A stretch of DNA of 64,000 bases. Source: Escherichia phage vB_EcoP_PAS59. Location of the stretch: the sequence record OQ921332.1; one strand, 5' to 3'. Positions 8,322-54,991 of this stretch are shown here, one piece after another. The stretch's first letter is position 1; each line of letters opens with the position of its first letter. Under the pieces are notes generated by a model that saw nothing but the letters and a program-made list of their open reading frames with translations, ran no database searches and had not been told where the DNA came from. A program made the position numbers and the translations under genes.

Positions 8322-8564
8322 ATGTTGTCTATCGAAGATTTGATCAGCCGTGGAATGACCGAAGAAAAAGAGCCTCTGATTGTAGGCTCTCGTAAAGCTA
8401 TCAACCAACTCTGTGAAGAGTTCGGTATCACAAATAAGAGAATGATTGGTAATCAGTTCTCTGCAATCATCACCTTCCTCAAACGAGGTGATAAATATTC
8501 AATGGAAAGTGCTGAGCGTATCATCGCAATTGCACAAGCAGATAAGGGAGTAACAAGTCTGTGA
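8322..8564 (+). CDS. hypothetical protein
   Basis: ORF only. Confidence 0.35.
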   Translation: MLSIEDLISRGMTEEKEPLIVGSRKAINQLCEEFGITNKRMIGNQFSAIITFLKRGDKYSMESAERIIAIAQADKGVTSL

Positions 8565-8746: not shown

Positions 8747-8812
8747 TTTGCTTTAGCCTCTTCGAAAGAGGAGGCTAGTTCGAATTTAACTGAAACACTA
8801 AAAGGTAATATA

Positions 8813-9244
8813 ATGTCTGATAAAGTACTAGTTGCAACTTACGGAAGCTTGAGAAAAGGTCAACACAACCACGCTATCAATGCTCGTGCAGGTGGTGTGT
8901 CTATTGGTGAAGGGTGGACAGTAAACAACTGTAACCTGTATCAGTATTGCACAGCATACTTCCCAAGTGTATCTTTGGAGCATGACAGCAATGGTAAGCC
9001 TGTTCGTGTAGAAGTCTTTGAAACAACCCAAGCTGGTCTGGAAGGTCCGTATGACGGTCTGGAAGGTCATCGTGGTAATGATAACCCATACACCTTTTAT
9101 AAGCGTACACTGATTCCAGTATTATTGGACAGCGGTGAAACTGTGGAAGCGTGGATTTATCACATCGACGAAGAACAAGATGTTCTGGTTGAATCGGGTG
9201 ACTGGACAGCATATCTGGCAGGTGAGAAGGATGACAGTAACTGA
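8813..9244 (+). CDS. gamma-glutamyl cyclotransferase / AIG2-like protein
   Basis: N-terminal 'VATYGSLRKG' (YGSL motif typical of the GGCT/AIG2 fold), about 140 aa. Confidence 0.5.
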   Translation: MSDKVLVATYGSLRKGQHNHAINARAGGVSIGEGWTVNNCNLYQYCTAYFPSVSLEHDSNGKPVRVEVFETTQAGLEGPYDGLEGHRGNDNPYTFYKRTLIPVLLDSGETVEAWIYHIDEEQDVLVESGDWTAYLAGEKDDSN

Positions 9245-14026: not shown

Positions 14027-14232
14027 TGGCTAAATTATGGGCAGTTCGTGTTAAATGGGCTAACAAAGATCTCGGTGGTGACTGTCTTAAATTATTCGAC
14101 ACACGACAAGAAGCTCGTCTTGCTAAGAAAGCTACAAAAGCTTTAGGACTCGCTGAAAAAGTGGATATTCATCGCTGGTTTCAAAATGATAATAACAGTG
14201 CTGGGTCCTTGACTAGCAAGGTCCACTACTAG
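14026..14232 (+). CDS. small protein, tandem paralog B
   Basis: 'WAVRVKWANK...TRQEARLAKKA...KVHY'. Confidence 0.45.
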   Translation: MAKLWAVRVKWANKDLGGDCLKLFDTRQEARLAKKATKALGLAEKVDIHRWFQNDNNSAGSLTSKVHY

Positions 14233-14256
14233 TTGGTAGTAGATATGATAACTCTC

Positions 14257-14265
14257 AAATGTATA
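14257..14265 (+). promoter_or_regulatory. promoter-like element AAATGTATA (8/9 to TAATGTATA)
   Basis: Intergenic, about 40 bp before ATG 14303. Confidence 0.3.
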
Positions 14266-14302
14266 TACAGTATAAGAATATTGTATGAAACAGGAGAGAG
14301 TT

Positions 14303-14632
14303 ATGTTAGATTTGAGTAAAGTGGCCCCGCCATCTGAAGAGATTAGCAAAGCTAAAGTTATGCAGCAGTTCTATCATCGTGACATGCTTGGTCGTTATAT
14401 CAAGAATCGTGATGTTGTTGCATGGTCTATTGGAAACCAAGGCTATCTTCTCAAAGTGTTGCAAGTTACTGGCTCAACAGCCAAGCGAGTCAAAGTCTAT
14501 GACCCTGAGATGGGGCGTTCTAAATCGGTAGACCCACAGAATTGCATTGTTATTACACAGCAGGTCATGGATAACATTGCTCGTAATGTAGCTAATTCAA
14601 CTAACTTAGAAGGGGATGCACCTAATGCATAA
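14303..14632 (+). CDS. hypothetical protein
   Basis: CAGGAGAGAG before ATG at 14303. Confidence 0.4.
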   Translation: MLDLSKVAPPSEEISKAKVMQQFYHRDMLGRYIKNRDVVAWSIGNQGYLLKVLQVTGSTAKRVKVYDPEMGRSKSVDPQNCIVITQQVMDNIARNVANSTNLEGDAPNA

Positions 14633-21783: not shown

Positions 21784-22390
21784 AAACTTCATTGTGCATG
21801 TAAAAGTTGGTGAACTCGGTGAAACCCGACCATTAAGTTGAGGGCAATACCGAGCTAAGCTATTAGGAGGTGATATGGCTAAGAAAGATCTAGTGTTAGA
21901 AACTACTGACACAGGATGTATCATCCCTATCTCACACAAACTTAATAAAGATGGTTACTTCAGAAAGGTAATAGATGGCAAATGGGTCATGTATCACCGA
22001 TACGTCATGGAAGAAAAGTTTGGAAAGATTCCTGATGGGTTTGAAGTAAACCATAAATGCAAGAACAGAGCTTGCTGTAACACAGACCACCTAGAGATTC
22101 TATGGGGGAGTGCTCATGCAATAGAATCCAATACAGGTAGAAACAGAGAAAGACAGGAAGCTGCTAAAGAATTCTGGCTTAATAATGAATGTACCGGTGT
22201 TGCTCTTGCGGAAAGATTTGGTGTGAGCTTTGGAATCGCTTGTAGATGGATTCGAAAGTGGAAAGTGTAGAGACTATCCTTTGGGAGTAGGGGGTTAACA
22301 GGGAAACCCTCGAAGCGCCAACAACAGCAAATTAGCTATGCTGTTATGATATAGTCCGATACCCGAAGTAATTTGGGAATAACATAAATG
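21784..22390 (+). mobile_element. group I intron (IA-like) carrying an HNH endonuclease ORF
   Basis: 5' exon ends in U; P1 pairing of AUGCAU (21778-83) with GUGCAU (21794-99); R-like 'AGAGACUAUC' (about 22266-75) and S-like 'AUGAUAUAGUCC' (about 22346-58); terminal G at 22390. Confidence 0.6.
21875..22270 (+). CDS. intron-encoded HNH homing endonuclease
   Basis: 'EVNHKCKNRACCNTDHLEILWGS'; AGGAGG before ATG. Confidence 0.7.
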   Translation: MAKKDLVLETTDTGCIIPISHKLNKDGYFRKVIDGKWVMYHRYVMEEKFGKIPDGFEVNHKCKNRACCNTDHLEILWGSAHAIESNTGRNRERQEAAKEFWLNNECTGVALAERFGVSFGIACRWIRKWKV

Positions 22391-23956: not shown

Positions 23957-24136
23957 ATGAAGAAATACAGCGTGTGGTTCAATGAGGTAGAAGAGGGTTT
24001 TGATGAAGTTGGTGGTTGGGTTAATATCCTAAACACAGACGACATAGAAGAGGCCGAGAAATGCGCCCTAAACTACAACTCTGGATATTATGAAAGAAAT
24101 TGGGAGCACGATGAAATACTACAAAGTAGTTTATAA
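23957..24136 (+). CDS. small acidic protein, dispersed paralog A
   Basis: 'KYSVWFNEVEEGFDEVGGWVNILNTDDIEEAEK...YYE'. Confidence 0.4.
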   Translation: MKKYSVWFNEVEEGFDEVGGWVNILNTDDIEEAEKCALNYNSGYYERNWEHDEILQSSL

Positions 24137-24685
24137 GTTAAATTTATACCTTCGTGGAACAGGCAGTCTTGAAGTGTCAGGGTGTAAAGTTGTAGAAGAA
24201 GAAAACCCTATTAAAGCTGTTGAGAAGGTTAAAGAGACTATTAAGCTTGAAGAAATAGGAAGTTTTGAATTAGTTGATATTGAGGAAGTTAAATGATTTG
24301 GGTTCATACTTATAAGATTGGAAAGAAAATAGTTGACCGAATTCACTATGATGAAGCAGAAGCTCAGGCTTCTCTGGCAGTTCTTGGTGGTAAGGTGAGG
24401 AATTATGTAGAGGCTGGTAAGCCAGTTAACAATCCACCTGTTCTAGAGTATCTCGGAACAAACAATCCAATCACAGCAATGTCAATCATCAACAATAAAC
24501 AAAGGGAGTTGTTATAATGACTAATGAATATATTATTAAAAATGATGCGACAGGTTTGTTTCAATTCATCACAGATGCGACAGACTATGGACAACTTATC
24601 AATTTCGTAGAACTTGCAAAGCTCAAGGAAGAAATTGATGCTCTATATGCCGACGAGCAATCTAAACTCCTACAAGAGTCTCTAA

Positions 24686-24871
24686 GTGGAGATTACATCT
24701 GTGATGGTTGCACAATCTAAACGATATAAAGTCTGGCTAGATGAAGGAGCTGAGTATCCTGAAGGTTTTGGCTGGAAAGTTATTCTGGAAACAGATGATA
24801 TGGAGGAGGCTGAAACGAAAGCTGAATCTTTCAACTACTCATATTATGAGGACACATACGAGAATGGCTGA
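24686..24871 (+). CDS. small acidic protein, dispersed paralog B
   Basis: 'RYKVWLDEGAEYPEGFGWKVILETDDMEEAET...YYE'. Confidence 0.4.
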   Translation: MEITSVMVAQSKRYKVWLDEGAEYPEGFGWKVILETDDMEEAETKAESFNYSYYEDTYENG

Positions 24872-25370
24872 AGTTTATTTTGCAGGTGATGGTCACCTAG
24901 GCCATCGTAATATTTGTAACTTTAGAAAGAAGTTTAGTAGTATTGAAGAGCATGACAAAGCTATCTTAGCAGCGTTTGATCATGTTACTAAACGTGATAA
25001 AACTTTCTTTACAGGTGACTGGGTGTTTGAGAAGTATGCACTTGATATTATCGCTGAAGTAAAAGGAGAGAAGCATCTTGTCTTAGGGAACCATGACAGA
25101 TTAGAACTTCTCCCTGATATGATGAAAGTCTTTAGACACATCAGTGGTGATTATAAGTACAAAGAGTTTTGGGTAACTCATATTCCTATTCACTCTGATG
25201 AAATGAGAGGAAAGTATAATATCTATGCTCATACTCATAATCATGTGATTGATGATTGGAGATACTTCTGTACTTCGATGGAACAAATCAACTTTAAAGC
25301 TGTATCTCTGCAAGAGATTAGGAAGACCTTTGATGAAAGAAGAAAAGAACAAAGTATCATCACTATTTAA
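24864..25370 (+). CDS. calcineurin-like metallophosphoesterase
   Basis: 'GDGHLGH...GDW...LVLGNHD' metal-binding motifs; start ATG 24864. Confidence 0.6.
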   Translation: MAEVYFAGDGHLGHRNICNFRKKFSSIEEHDKAILAAFDHVTKRDKTFFTGDWVFEKYALDIIAEVKGEKHLVLGNHDRLELLPDMMKVFRHISGDYKYKEFWVTHIPIHSDEMRGKYNIYAHTHNHVIDDWRYFCTSMEQINFKAVSLQEIRKTFDERRKEQSIITI

Positions 25371-25605
25371 ACCACCTGTTGTTTATAAAGATAGTCTCAG
25401 AGATCAATACAGTAAGATGTTAAAAGATCAAGCTGAATCTAACTTACTTTATCAGCGAATAGTAGAAGAATCTAGATTAAAAGGAATGATGGAGTGGTAA
25501 CTTATGTTCTTTACTTCTTAGCTTTCTTAGGAATAATCTTTTTATCTATTATTATTGAATTTGGTTTAAGTAAGTTAGTTAACTATTTAGGTAGTAAGTA
25601 ATTAA

Positions 25606-25671
25606 TATTCTTTTAAATAGAGAATCAAAGTCCCTAGGAGTCCCCACAACCTAAATCAAGGATTCCTTAAT
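25606..25671. repeat. perfect 11-bp inverted repeat AAATAGAGAAT/ATTCTCTATTT with 44-bp spacer
   Basis: Read directly; lies in a 415-bp non-coding AT-rich region. Confidence 0.6.
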
Positions 25672-25775
25672 TCTCTATTTTTATCTCGCAGGTGTCTCCT
25701 GCCCTTCGGTACTTGCAAGGGTTACAATGATTGCCCAATATACAAGCCTGCAATAGCTTTACTAGCTATACCATA

Positions 25776-25784
25776 TATACATTA
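25776..25784 (-). promoter_or_regulatory. TAATGTATA element in leftward orientation (no obvious target gene)
   Basis: Plus-strand TATACATTA. Confidence 0.25.
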
Positions 25785-25846
25785 CTACTTGTCATTATCT
25801 ACTACCAAAAAGGTTATAGTATAATAGAACCTTATCTGTATAGGTG

Positions 25847-25855
25847 TAATGTATA
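25847..25855 (+). promoter_or_regulatory. TAATGTATA promoter-like element upstream of SSB-like gene
   Basis: Exact 9-mer about 60 bp before ATG 25915; a perfect TATAAT also at 25820-25825. Confidence 0.4.
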
Positions 25856-25914
25856 TAGTATACAAACCGCTCAAAGAGAGCAACAATCTTAAATCTATAT
25901 AAGGAAATATTAAT

Positions 25915-26655
25915 ATGTCTATGATCCCTGAACTGTCTGTATCCCGTAAATCCAACTACGATGTAATCCCTGATGGTGAGTACGAAGCACGTATTGTTCG
26001 TGTTGTAGGTTTGGGTGTTCACAATCGTGACCCTTGGATTGACCCTAAGACCAAAGCAGTTACCCCTAAGAACCCAGCTTTCCGTATGGACTTAGCTTTT
26101 GAGCTGATTGGCGTAGATGCAACAGGGACTGATAATGAAGGCAAACCTCTGGACCCTCGTCCTGCTTGCCAGTTTAAATCTTTCGATGTAAACCCACGAG
26201 CTAAGAACTCTGGTATTCTAAATCTGATTAAAATGATCGACCCAAGTGTTCAAGCACTGAAAGGTGATTTGGGTTGGTTTAAAGATATGCTGTTAGGTCA
26301 GCCTGTTAACATTCTGGTTAACTCTTACACCAATAAAGCTGGTGAGAAGAAAAACTCCATTAAAAGCATCACTCCAATCCCGACTAAATATCGTGACGCG
26401 GTAGGTGCTCCTCGTAGTGAGTTGATCTTCTTCGAACCGTATGCTGAGACTGACGCTAACTTAGCTGCTTATCAAGCAATCTTCCCATTCCAACGTAACC
26501 TCTTGACTCAAGCTAACGATGCTAAGAATATCCCTCTGGCTGGTCGTGAAGTTACTAAAGCTTCTGATACTGAACAGAAAGATGCTACTCCAAGCATCCC
26601 TACCATTAATGAAGAGCCGCAATCAACCTTTGAAGAGGATGATTCGCCTTTCTAA
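25915..26655 (+). CDS. single-stranded DNA-binding protein (putative)
   Basis: Acidic C-terminal tail ending '...EEDDSPF' (as in SSB DDDIPF); sits after a large regulatory region and before a terminator. Confidence 0.5.
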   Translation: MSMIPELSVSRKSNYDVIPDGEYEARIVRVVGLGVHNRDPWIDPKTKAVTPKNPAFRMDLAFELIGVDATGTDNEGKPLDPRPACQFKSFDVNPRAKNSGILNLIKMIDPSVQALKGDLGWFKDMLLGQPVNILVNSYTNKAGEKKNSIKSITPIPTKYRDAVGAPRSELIFFEPYAETDANLAAYQAIFPFQRNLLTQANDAKNIPLAGREVTKASDTEQKDATPSIPTINEEPQSTFEEDDSPF

Positions 26656-26677
26656 GAATCTCTCCTTGTAACAGCTT

Positions 26678-26702
26678 AGCCACCTTCGGGTGGCTTTTTT
26701 CG
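26678..26702 (+). terminator. intrinsic terminator AGCCACC-UUCG-GGUGGCU plus UUUUUU
   Basis: Read directly; after the SSB-like gene. Confidence 0.65.
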
Positions 26703-26713
26703 TTGGAGTTAAA

Positions 26714-27055
26714 ATGGAAAAGCTTCAAAACAATATAGGTTTTTTAATCTTCACAGCTCTGGTTTTCTTTGGTGGTGTCAAGTTTGAGCAATACAGAAGT
26801 GATAGTAATGCTCTTGACCATGAGAAGAAACAGCAAGAGATTGAGGTTGAGAGAGCTAAGGCTGCTGATGAAGTGGCTCAGAAAGTTCTGACTGGTTTAT
26901 CTAACTGGAAGAAGAACACGGAAACTATTTACAAAGAGATGCATTATGAAAAGACTAAGCCAGTTTTTTACAATGTGTGTGCTAGTGATGAGTATGTAGG
27001 ACTTTTCAATGAACGACAGCAACAAGCAGCGGAGGCACTGAAATTAAAGAATTAG
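26714..27055 (+). CDS. i-spanin-like protein (N-terminal TM plus periplasmic coiled coil)
   Basis: 'IGFLIFTALVFFGGV' TM, charged helical remainder; C-terminal 'GLFNERQQQAAEAL' duplicated downstream. Confidence 0.4.
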   Translation: MEKLQNNIGFLIFTALVFFGGVKFEQYRSDSNALDHEKKQQEIEVERAKAADEVAQKVLTGLSNWKKNTETIYKEMHYEKTKPVFYNVCASDEYVGLFNERQQQAAEALKLKN

Positions 27056-27537
27056 TTAAATATCTATCTTACAATGAGGTTTCTGGTCTTCTCTGCTGGA
27101 AACAGTCTGAGGATAAGAGCGCTCAGTGGAATTCAAGATTCGCTGGAAAGGTGGCAGGTTGTAAAGCCACAGATGGCTATACAGTGATTACCTATCAATA
27201 TAAACAGTACAAAGCTCATAGAATTGCTTGGTATATCAAAACTGGAGAGATTCCTGATTTTCAAATAGACCATAAAGATTTAGACAAATCTAATAATTCT
27301 TGGAGCAATCTAAGAAGAGCAACACCTGTCCTTAATAATGCCAACAAAATAGTTCAAAAGAACTCTTTAACTGGAATAAAAGGTGTAGGGTACAGGTCGG
27401 ATATTAACAAATGGAGTGCTCGCATCGGATATCAAAACAAAGTAATTTGGCTTGGTTATCACAGCACTCAAGATGGTGCAGAAAATGCTTACAAAGAAAA
27501 AGCAAAAGAGTTGTTTGGTGATTTTTCTCGCTTCTAG
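27043..27537 (+). CDS. HNH-AP2 homing endonuclease; predicted AUU start
   Basis: Frame open from 27013 with no ATG/GTG/TTG until 27151, yet encodes conserved N-terminus 'IKELVKYLSYNEVSGLLCWK...AHRIAW'; GGAGG 7 nt upstream of ATT 27043. Confidence 0.55.
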   Translation: MKELVKYLSYNEVSGLLCWKQSEDKSAQWNSRFAGKVAGCKATDGYTVITYQYKQYKAHRIAWYIKTGEIPDFQIDHKDLDKSNNSWSNLRRATPVLNNANKIVQKNSLTGIKGVGYRSDINKWSARIGYQNKVIWLGYHSTQDGAENAYKEKAKELFGDFSRF

Positions 27538-27996: not shown

Positions 27997-28647
27997 ATGA
28001 AGAAAAAGACAACACCCACACGCTATCGTATTCATGGCATACCTATTAAATACTACCCAACCTTCGATGAATTCTATCGAGAGAATTGGAAAGTTGTGCA
28101 TAAGTATTTTATGTACGACATTAAAGATTATCACGAAGCAGAGGATGTTGCTCAGGAAGTGTTACTGAACTCTTGGCGTTTTGTATTTGCAAAGCAAGAA
28201 GAACTGCTGCTTACCGATGAAAAAGATATTGAACACATGACTTATCGTGTGAAGAATATCATCTGGTCGATTCGTTCTAATCGACAGACAGTTGGAGACA
28301 GACGTATCTATTCTATTCCAGAGGCTGATATGTTTAGACCTCCCGAGATGAATTCATGGGAAAGTCCTTTAGAGATTGCTATGGATAAGCATGATTCTAC
28401 TGGAGACCCATTCTTGGAATCTAGAATCTTTTTCTTCTTCCAAGACCTAAGTGATATTATGGAAAACCGCAAGATGGCAAGTATGTTCTCAATGCTCTTC
28501 CTCGGTATTCCTCATGATCACATCCAACAAGAGCTGGGAATTTCACACGGAACCTTCTATCGCCGTTATTCGGAGAATCGTGATCTGTATGAAGCGGTAG
28601 TAGAGAAGCACTTTGATAAAGAAGATCTTCAAGGGATGATTCAATAA
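27997..28647 (+). CDS. phage-encoded sigma-70 family (ECF-like) sigma factor
   Basis: Region-2-like '[17 protein letters not shown]' and C-terminal HTH-like '[22 protein letters not shown]'. Confidence 0.5.
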
Positions 28648-36485: not shown

Positions 36486-36510
36486 TAAGAGATAGGACTT
36501 AGGTCTTAGA

Positions 36511-39622: not shown

Positions 39623-40675
39623 TTAATTTGCTCCAAAGGCTCCTAGAACACCACCTAAGATATTACTCCCTGCGGTAGATAGCCAGTTGCTCTGACCGTT
39701 CTGTTGAGACAGGTTTGAGCCACCAATCATAGGACCAGCCATCCCAGCTTGACCTCCAGAAGCATTGTACGAATTCCAAGCATTAGTAGTTTGCTGGTTA
39801 GGGGTAAAAGCACCTAGACGACCAGCAATACCAAGACCAGTAATCCCAGCACCAAGGATTTGTTGTGAAGCATTAGGGGCAGCACCTCTATTAGTAATAG
39901 TGTACCCAGCCATTGGACTTACTGAGTTTAATACATTAAGCTGATTGTTAAGCTGATTCCAACCATACTGCTGACTACCAATAGCATTCTCCCAATTGTT
40001 GTTAGCTTGGAGTTGATCTTGCTGCTGTTGAAGGTTTCCAGCAATGAGCTGATTCTGTATTGCCTGTTGACCAGCTTGTACTCCAGCAGCACCTAGATTC
40101 AAGTTCTGACCTGCTAAACCAGATTGAGCATTTAGCAAACCTTGCTGATAAGAGTTGTTATTCAGAAGATTACTAACACCCATATTTTTACCCTGAATAG
40201 AGCGAGAGAGGTTAGTATTCGCTGAAGAAAGAGCAGCACCTTGGGCAGCAGCACGTCTCAGAGAACCTGAGTCAGATCCATTGCCAAGGGATACATTAGC
40301 AGCAGCTTTACCTGTAGACTTAGCTAGTGCAGAATTATTCAATCCAGAACTAAAGTTATTAACATCCTGAGCAGAGATACCACCTTTATTAACTAGGTTT
40401 TGGTATTTCTGAGCCAACTCATTCATCTGGTCTAGCCCTTGTTGAGTTCGAGGAGTATACATCTGACTAAGTTGGTTAAGTGTATTAGAGTTTGCTAAAT
40501 TAGAAAGAGCTGCCGTTTGGCCTTCATTAAAGCCCGCTATATTACGACTGATGAACCCTTGGTCATTTTGATTCATAGCTTGGGCATTGGCTACAATCTG
40601 TTTCAGAAGAGCATCAACCTGAGAAGACGGAGCTACCGTAGTCTTAGATTTAGGAGCAGAACCGAAAAGAGACAT
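39623..40675 (-). CDS. Gln/Asn/Gly-rich virion protein, tandem paralog 2
   Basis: 'MSLFG...KSKTT', 'TAALSNLANSN', 'LQQQQDQLQANNNWEN', Gly-rich C-terminus. Confidence 0.4.
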   Translation of the reverse strand: MSLFGSAPKSKTTVAPSSQVDALLKQIVANAQAMNQNDQGFISRNIAGFNEGQTAALSNLANSNTLNQLSQMYTPRTQQGLDQMNELAQKYQNLVNKGGISAQDVNNFSSGLNNSALAKSTGKAAANVSLGNGSDSGSLRRAAAQGAALSSANTNLSRSIQGKNMGVSNLLNNNSYQQGLLNAQSGLAGQNLNLGAAGVQAGQQAIQNQLIAGNLQQQQDQLQANNNWENAIGSQQYGWNQLNNQLNVLNSVSPMAGYTITNRGAAPNASQQILGAGITGLGIAGRLGAFTPNQQTTNAWNSYNASGGQAGMAGPMIGGSNLSQQNGQSNWLSTAGSNILGGVLGAFGAN

Positions 40676-54938: not shown

Positions 54939-54960
54939 CACACTAGCTTGTATAGGTCTT

Positions 54961-54991
54961 AAAACGAAAAAACCCCGCCCGAAGGCAGGGT
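54961..54991 (-). terminator. strong intrinsic terminator CCCUGCC-UUCG-GGCGGGG plus UUUUUUCGUUUU
   Basis: Immediately after the capsid/Ig-extension stop. Confidence 0.65.

Follow-up and report, generated by a model that had tools for sequence, protein, structure and literature searches.

What is the function of the largest gap between genes in a phiEco32-like phage? The DNA analysed here is a 64,000-nucleotide (nt) stretch of Escherichia phage vB_EcoP_PAS59 (OQ921332.1; the window), and the gap, referred to below as the hub, lies immediately upstream of gene 40, which codes for a protein resembling single-stranded DNA-binding proteins (SSBs). The hub is probably, though well short of certainly, a pair of divergent promoters for RNA polymerase (RNAP) carrying the phage sigma factor gp36, comprising the known promoter P40 and a leftward promoter that would make a middle or late non-coding RNA antisense to the 3′ end of the upstream operon. 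All functional statements about the hub are made on the basis of sequence and comparison.

The comparison covers 32 sequences, taken from 98 GenBank records and from metagenome assemblies. The 98 phage records match a segment of 601 bases round the hub, and nearly all are Escherichia or Shigella podophages of the Gordonclarkvirinae (Kuravirus, Suseptimavirus); the hub stretch itself belongs to a phiEco32-like podophage of this group. The closest record over this segment is IME267 (99.3%), phiEco32 stands at 87%, and the plus strand of the window corresponds to the minus strand of the matching records.

A preliminary description of this DNA gave the non-coding interval as 415 bp. It is shorter than that, because it holds a conserved open reading frame (ORF) of 35 codons, and the true non-coding interval is 25602–25914 (313 bp). 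No other gap in the window is larger if a mechanically called ORF (25731–25892), which is not conserved and is broken in relatives, is discounted.

Divergent gp36-type promoters

The 9-mer tAATGTAtA is the sole conserved element of the promoters read by E. coli RNAP carrying phiEco32 gp36, and transcription starts 6–8 nt downstream of it (PMC8948821, PMC4331800). Six such promoters have been mapped, those of genes 6, 13 and 26 (late) and of genes 40, 58 and 68 (middle) (PMC8948821; PMC4331800; Pavlova et al. 2012 as cited in PMC8948821). Equivalents of all six are present in the window at the expected places (Table 1), and the window codes for both gp36 and its co-activator gp79. Exact copies of TAATGTATA occur five times in the window against 0.53 expected, a number reached in none of 100 shuffles. 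Known promoters account for four of them; the fifth, the leftward copy in the hub, is the only one that does not correspond to a listed promoter.

The two exact copies of TAATGTATA in opposite orientation had been noticed in the preliminary description, which rightly took the interval for a divergent-promoter regulatory hub but missed that the 9-mer is the known gp36 element and that the rightward copy is the mapped P40 (PMC8948821, PMC4331800). Both copies lie in a longer, 12-nt exact inverted repeat, GTAATGTATATA.

The leftward element closely resembles P68. The two have in common the 13-mer TTGGTAGTAGATA positioned 11 nt upstream of the 9-mer and a TA-NN-GTATA pattern downstream, and phiEco32's own P68 has the same TTGGTAGTAGATA sequence. 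In a cryo-electron microscopy structure (2025) of the gp79–gp36–RNAP open complex on P68, the C-terminal domain of gp36 contacts −37G and the pair at −34A, and mutations of P68 at −37G and −34A abolish transcription (PMC12276001). The leftward promoter has both −37G and −34A; P40 has the A at −34 and a T at −37.

Conservation follows the same pattern. Across 27 close relatives conservation extends to the −35 core TGGTAGTA and to the −10 element, which is exact TAATGTATA in 26 of the 27, but not to the 11-nt spacer or positions −6 to −1, which vary. The TGGTAGT core of the −35 element is conserved in all relatives. More distant relatives have TAATGAATA or TAATGTATT as the leftward −10 element, and metagenomic phages with gp40 proteins just 67–74% identical keep TGGTAGT(A/G)-N14-TAATG(A/T)AT(A/T). 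The predicted start, A25769, lies 7 nt past the element, and in every version a hairpin begins with this base. Because it shares the 13-mer and spacing of P68, has a conserved core with a variable spacer, and places a hairpin at the predicted +1, the leftward element is plausibly a real P68-type gp36 promoter. It is absent from the published six-promoter lists, and there is no ORF, AUG or conserved frame downstream of it; P40, by comparison, stands upstream of a middle gene.

In one clade, comprising EcM-vB1 (L009 1075–1218) and three further sequences (L005, L010 and L011), an insertion of ~130 bp containing a 47-codon ORF lies between the divergent promoters, and the start codon of this ORF overlaps the leftward −35 element.

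The −35 regions of the gp36 promoters in the window are of two kinds. Late promoters P26 and P13 have TAAGACCTA at −38 to −30 (36500–36508 and 54953–54961, both minus strand), and the middle-type promoters P68 and P58, together with the leftward promoter, carry TGG(T/A)A at −38 to −34 (14234, 18773 and 25807, respectively). This difference may separate middle from late gp36 promoter classes. Two further copies of TAAGACCTA (20684, and 23456 on the minus strand) have no −10 element. Outside the gp36 promoters, TTGGTAGTAGA-like and TAAGACCTA copies in the window were rejected because no −10 element follows them. One candidate extra gp36 promoter, at 39930–39961 (minus strand), has the P58-like arrangement TGGAAT-N17-TAATGTATT; it is on the coding strand of a late gene region and is absent from the published promoter list.

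The perfect TATAAT at 25820–25825, to which the preliminary description drew attention, is present but probably non-functional. As a sigma-70 promoter it has no −35 element at 16–18 nt and no TG extension, and it is not conserved, the phiEco32 clade having a TATATA-type sequence in its place.

The predicted leftward RNA

Transcription from A25769 to the foot of the long hairpin would yield an RNA of ~155 nt with a 5′ stem-loop, a variable middle module and a 3′ domain. The small leftward RNA suggested in the preliminary description is thus plausible, given the P68-matching architecture, the conserved −35 and −10 elements with their variable spacer, and the covarying hairpin at the predicted +1. 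This 5′ stem-loop is 100% paired in its nine variants, with compensatory changes at two pairs (U-A to G-C; C-G to A-U or U-A), and its covariation score was reached by none of 500 shuffles. Four of the nine variants contain a G·U pair that would be a C·A mismatch on the plus strand. Three sequences (L039, L043 and L044) have a non-homologous hairpin, ACAUC-AAAC-GAUGU, at +1.

The middle modules combine independently with different 5′ hairpin types, and recombination has therefore taken place inside the element.

The 3′ domain contains a short GC hairpin, an A-rich linker and a long hairpin. The short hairpin, GCAGG-TGTCT-CCTGC in the window, is among the G/C hairpins noted before. The perfect 11-bp inverted repeat that forms the long hairpin, with 44 nt between its arms, is also real, but it had been placed at 25606–25671 and lies 9 nt farther right. 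The window has two perfect 11-bp inverted repeats with loops of at most 60 nt, both of them in the hub; the chance level is ~1 per 64 kb (mean of 1.0 in 40 Markov-1 simulated sequences). The lower stem is extended to 16 bp on the minus strand, three of the pairs being G·U, and the folding energy is −24.5 kcal/mol there compared with −18.2 kcal/mol for the plus strand. Compared with shuffled sequence, the hairpin folds better on either strand (z = −4.05 on the minus and −4.2 on the plus strand), and the minus-strand form is the more stable in all 11 variants.

A small protein was rejected for either strand: the leftward RNA has no AUG, its sole GUG frame is lost in the NC-B clade, its insertions and deletions are not multiples of three, and the mechanically called ORF is broken in relatives. 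There is no ARAGORN-type match to a transfer RNA or transfer-messenger RNA at the hub, and no Rfam family at gathering thresholds; a permissive Rfam search (E up to 10) gave only noise, with a best E-value of 1.9.

Conservation and distribution of the 3′ domain

The 3′ domain is formed by a 93-nt block that is the most conserved non-coding sequence found in these genomes in the present comparison. Every relative is 94–100% identical to the window over this block, whereas the nucleotide identity of gene 40 falls to 74–82% in divergent clades. Its variable sites are in loops or retain pairing through wobble, and homology among clades with differing upstream genes starts exactly at the foot of the long hairpin. 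Constraints on both strands, or a sequence-specific partner, could explain this invariance. A cluster of GANTC methylation sites (three sites in 45 nt) was set aside because four other places in the window are equally dense.

The element is confined to this phage group. No match was found in E. coli genomes, plasmids, GTDB genomes or Rfam, and a host-mimicry or mobile origin of the block was rejected on the lack of matches in the first three. Phages 7-11, GAP52, Proteus P59, Aeromonas LAh_8 and PKM.Lu.22.1 have no hub homolog, with only ~55–105 bp upstream of their gene 40 homologs, and three metagenomic phages with gp40 proteins 61–65% identical have an unrelated 147-bp spacer in place of the hub. 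In a further metagenomic sequence (L046, 430–575), whose gp40 is 67% identical, the leftward promoter is retained, but an unrelated long hairpin, rich in A and U, stands in place of the conserved RNA body, and a U-rich tract comes after it on the minus strand. A hairpin with a U-rich tract on that strand was seen only there. Because L046 keeps the promoter with a different hairpin, the arrangement of a leftward promoter followed by a hairpin RNA is suggested to be the older conserved feature.

Proposed action of the hub

Promoter architecture, conservation, folding, strand bias and lack of coding capacity are direct observations from sequence and comparison; from them we infer that the leftward promoter fires and that its RNA acts in cis on the upstream transcripts. 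Once gp36 and gp79 accumulate, host RNAP with gp36 would fire both ways from the hub. Rightward transcription would start at A25862 and run through a 53-nt leader into the SSB-like gene 40. Leftward transcription would start at A25769 at middle or late times and give the ~155-nt non-coding RNA, with its stem-loop at +1, its exchangeable middle module and its ultraconserved 3′ domain. This RNA would be fully complementary to the 3′ end of the upstream unit, with whose transcript it is expected to overlap, and on the plus strand the same hairpin with its invariant run of five U residues would provide a terminator-like 3′ structure for that unit.

The simplest mechanism that we can infer is cis-antisense action, which could follow either of two routes: the complementary hairpins could pair and the duplex be cleaved, or head-on transcription could interfere. 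Either would end or destabilise the upstream transcripts and separate the upstream unit from gene 40, which would then rely on P40. A trans-acting role of the leftward RNA is also possible.

Several observations weigh against this reading. One metagenomic sequence (L027, ~8800–9080) has a −11G>A change in the leftward core (TAATaTATA) with the rest of the RNA intact. In phages with a window-type hub the minus-strand hairpin is followed by UUUAAAAG and by no U-tract that would define the 3′ end of the RNA, and a promoter and terminator scan of the minus strand from 24500 to 27000 returned no terminator-like site. Pairing in the upper part of the long hairpin is better on the plus strand, the only one on which an 8-bp stem forms. 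The 3′ domain is without covariation, simply invariant, and structure alone does not account for this. No target other than the antisense partner emerged in the window, where the longest complementary or identical words are 12 nt, as in shuffled controls. Finally, the primary phiEco32 papers (Pavlova et al. 2012, Savalia et al. 2008), which stand outside the comparison, may mention or test the leftward promoter.

Alternative explanations

A bolder account, which we regard as doubtful, is that the orphan promoter and the 93-nt element constitute a Kuravirus-type origin primed or opened by sigma-gp36 transcription, or that the RNA belongs to a new class of riboregulator whose 3′ domain is read sequence-specifically; the reader might be the RNAP–gp36–gp79 complex or an RNase. 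If true, either version would explain an element that is frozen while its surroundings drift and recombine.

The long hairpin and the U-run could instead do no more than end the upstream operon, either by intrinsic termination or as a processing or stabilising hairpin of the RNase III type, like the R sites of T7; the leftward TAATGTATA would then be silent, or would have arisen as a by-product when P40 was duplicated in inverted form. We consider this unlikely, although the hairpin always follows closely on the last upstream gene, no matter which one it is, the plus-strand U-run is invariant, and the plus strand both folds better than shuffled sequence and has the upper 8-bp stem to itself. 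The structure is not a canonical terminator: the U-run follows an AU-rich 11-bp stem, the arms are 44 nt apart and the scan made no call, whereas the phage has ordinary GC-rich terminators elsewhere (e.g. 26678–26695). Moreover, 93 invariant nucleotides are more than a terminator needs, and this explanation accounts neither for −35 and −10 elements that are conserved and spaced as in P68 while the spacer varies, nor for the covarying hairpin at +1 with G·U pairs possible on the minus strand only.

An origin of replication had also been proposed in the preliminary description, from the position of the interval just upstream of the putative SSB gene. As a transcription-activated or transcription-primed origin, the leftward RNA would serve as primer or form an R-loop, the AT-rich spacer between the promoters would unwind, and the block would be the site of replisome assembly. 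The leftward promoter has no downstream gene and opposes all neighbouring genes, and invariance over 93 nt is easier to understand in a DNA-level or dual-strand site than in RNA structure alone. The setting is also suggestive, since 24001–26000 is the 2-kb interval of lowest G+C in the window (35.4%), the hub adjoins the SSB-like gene and is near exonuclease and deoxynucleoside monophosphate kinase genes, a module of T7-like DNA polymerase and primase-helicase is present in the phage family, and L046 has a very AT-rich stretch after the leftward promoter. However, the proposal was not borne out: the hub has no iterons, DnaA-type repeats, repeated boxes or direct-repeat families beyond chance, and the GC skew is uninformative, as it tracks gene orientation and has no inflection at the hub or independent of that orientation. 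The AT-richness present is only general, and in phages with a window-type hub the sequence downstream of the leftward promoter is not AT-rich; the covarying 5′ hairpin suggests selection for RNA stability that T7- or T4-type origin transcripts do not need, and the hub is wholly missing from relatives outside the clade. We hold an origin to be quite unlikely.

A duplex-DNA operator at which a phage regulator of P40 binds the inverted repeat or the AGTCC direct repeats is very improbable: the arms are a perfect palindrome, AGTCC(C)-TAGG-AGTCC(C) repeats with a period of ~10 bp and the sequence is invariant, but 44 bp separate the arms, P40 lies ~170 bp away from them, the element is retained where the foot of the left arm is altered (L039, L043 and L044) or the repeat spacing changes from 10 to 9 (NC-B clade), and no DNA-binding regulator is implicated.

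Genome context

The gene 40 product has the OB fold and the disordered acidic C-terminal tip ending in PF that characterise SSBs. The predicted P40 leader contains a small hairpin of 4–5 bp (25869–25881, +8 to +20), of which relatives carry compensatory variants (GCUC/GAGC, GUCC/GGAC and GUUC/GAAC). Directly 3′ of gene 40 is a canonical GC-rich terminator (AGCCACC-TTCG-GGTGGCT followed by T6; 26678–26695, plus strand), which overlaps the start of an Rz-like spanin ORF (26690–27055). On the other side of the hub, the phi32_41 ortholog is missing from the NC-B, Paul and XT18 clades.

The genome is a mosaic of known isolates. The P68 region (14180–14330) and the gene 40 protein are 100% identical to those of OliverMaurmann_Bas86, unlike the hub itself, which is closest to IME267. 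ORFs resembling HNH or AP2-type homing endonucleases stand on either side of the region (21875–22270 and 27151–27537, plus strand), and the presence of homing-endonuclease-like genes beside gene 40 differs among relatives (e.g. GAP52, L040 and L043).

Table 1. Hub features, gp36-type promoters and associated genes in the window.
Feature	Position	Strand	Remarks
Leftward −10-type element (gp36)	25776–25784	−	TAATGTATA; positions −15 to −7; exact match to tAATGTAtA
Leftward −35 element	25796–25808	−	TTGGTAGTAGATA; positions −39 to −27; identical to P68, same spacing
Predicted leftward non-coding RNA	25615–25769	−	~155 nt; +1 (A25769) to foot of long hairpin
5′ stem-loop	25753–25769	−	From predicted +1; covariation
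Variable middle module	25709–25752	−	At least three non-homologous allelic versions among relatives
Ultraconserved 93-nt block	25616–25708		3′ domain of predicted leftward RNA (GC hairpin, A-rich linker, long hairpin); 84/89 to 93/93 identical
GC hairpin	25689–25703		GCAGG-N5-CCTGC, window loop TGTCT; only the central loop base varies
T5 run	25681–25685	+	Right after long hairpin; plus-strand U-tract, minus-strand A-rich linker; invariant in all relatives
Long hairpin	25615–25680		66 nt; perfect arms AAATAGAGAAT (25615–25625) and ATTCTCTATTT (25670–25680), 44 nt between arms
P40	25847–25855	+	TAATGTATA; known gp36-dependent middle promoter of gene 40 (PMC4331800, PMC8948821 Table S3)
Predicted gene 40 mRNA leader	25862–25914	+	53 nt from predicted start A25862; Shine-Dalgarno AAGGA at 25901–25905
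P6	62343	−	TAATGTAgA
P13	54930	−	TAATGTATA
P26	36477	−	TAATGTATA
P58	18796	+	TAATGTATA
P68	14233–14265 (element 14257)	+	aAATGTATA; reference promoter sharing −35 13-mer and spacing with leftward promoter
phi32_41 ortholog	25494–25601	+	35-codon ORF, last gene of upstream unit; PHROG 24970, E=1.5e-23
Gene 40 (phi32_40) ortholog	25915–26655	+	246 residues; OB-fold SSB-like protein, C-terminal tip EEDDSPF
gp36 ortholog	27997–28647	+	Phage sigma factor, predicted to act in trans on both hub promoters; PHROG 1740, E=9e-43
gp79 ortholog	8322–8561	+	gp36 co-activator; tblastn 75% identity, E=3e-39

Significance

P40 and the gp36 motif are already known. The leftward promoter, its RNA and the ultraconserved block are apparently undescribed in the literature searched, the primary phiEco32 papers being outside that search, which found no RNA-seq data or mapping of transcription starts for any Escherichia phage of the phiEco32 type; a paper on the svsR small RNA was considered and is unrelated to the locus. 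phiEco32 is a model for the takeover of transcription by a phage sigma factor; the six gp36 promoters on its accepted map all precede protein-coding genes. A seventh that drives a non-coding RNA would, if real, add an RNA layer to this programme. Phages of this type are used and engineered for therapy against pathogenic E. coli, and an essential regulatory or origin element in the largest gap would bear on the choice of payload insertion sites.

Comparison with known systems

Within the phiEco32 system, exact TAATGTATA is present in both hub promoters, of which the rightward one is by its position orthologous to P40. The leftward promoter shares with P68 the 13-mer at −39 to −27, the 11-nt spacer and both −37G and −34A. 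It differs from the listed promoters in that it is predicted from sequence, has no gene downstream and opposes the middle genes.

Like the lambda OOP and P22 sar RNAs, the predicted hub RNA would be a short non-coding transcript that opposes its neighbours, overlaps the end of an adjacent unit and contains stable hairpins. The transcripts of lambda and P22 end at defined intrinsic terminators, and their targets, cII and ant, are known. The hub RNA differs in its predicted dependence on a phage sigma factor, in having no sequence or Rfam similarity to them, and in having no minus-strand U-tract in phages with a window-type hub.

The RNase III R sites of T7, and bidirectional terminators, are similar in that a ~65-nt hairpin with an internal loop lies between transcription units and can fold on both strands. 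T7 R sites are not known to be ultraconserved in sequence across diverged relatives or to be paired with an opposing promoter, whereas the hub hairpin is ultraconserved and is paired with the predicted leftward promoter.

Transcription-activated or transcription-primed origins include the T7 primary origin, T4 ori(uvsY) and ori(34), and ColE1 with its RNA II. Like those of T7 and T4, the hub combines a phage-specific promoter that has no obvious coding role with a neighbourhood of replication genes and AT-rich DNA nearby. It differs from them in phages with a window-type hub by the lack of an AT-rich unwinding element downstream of the promoter, and by an RNA that appears to be under structural selection.

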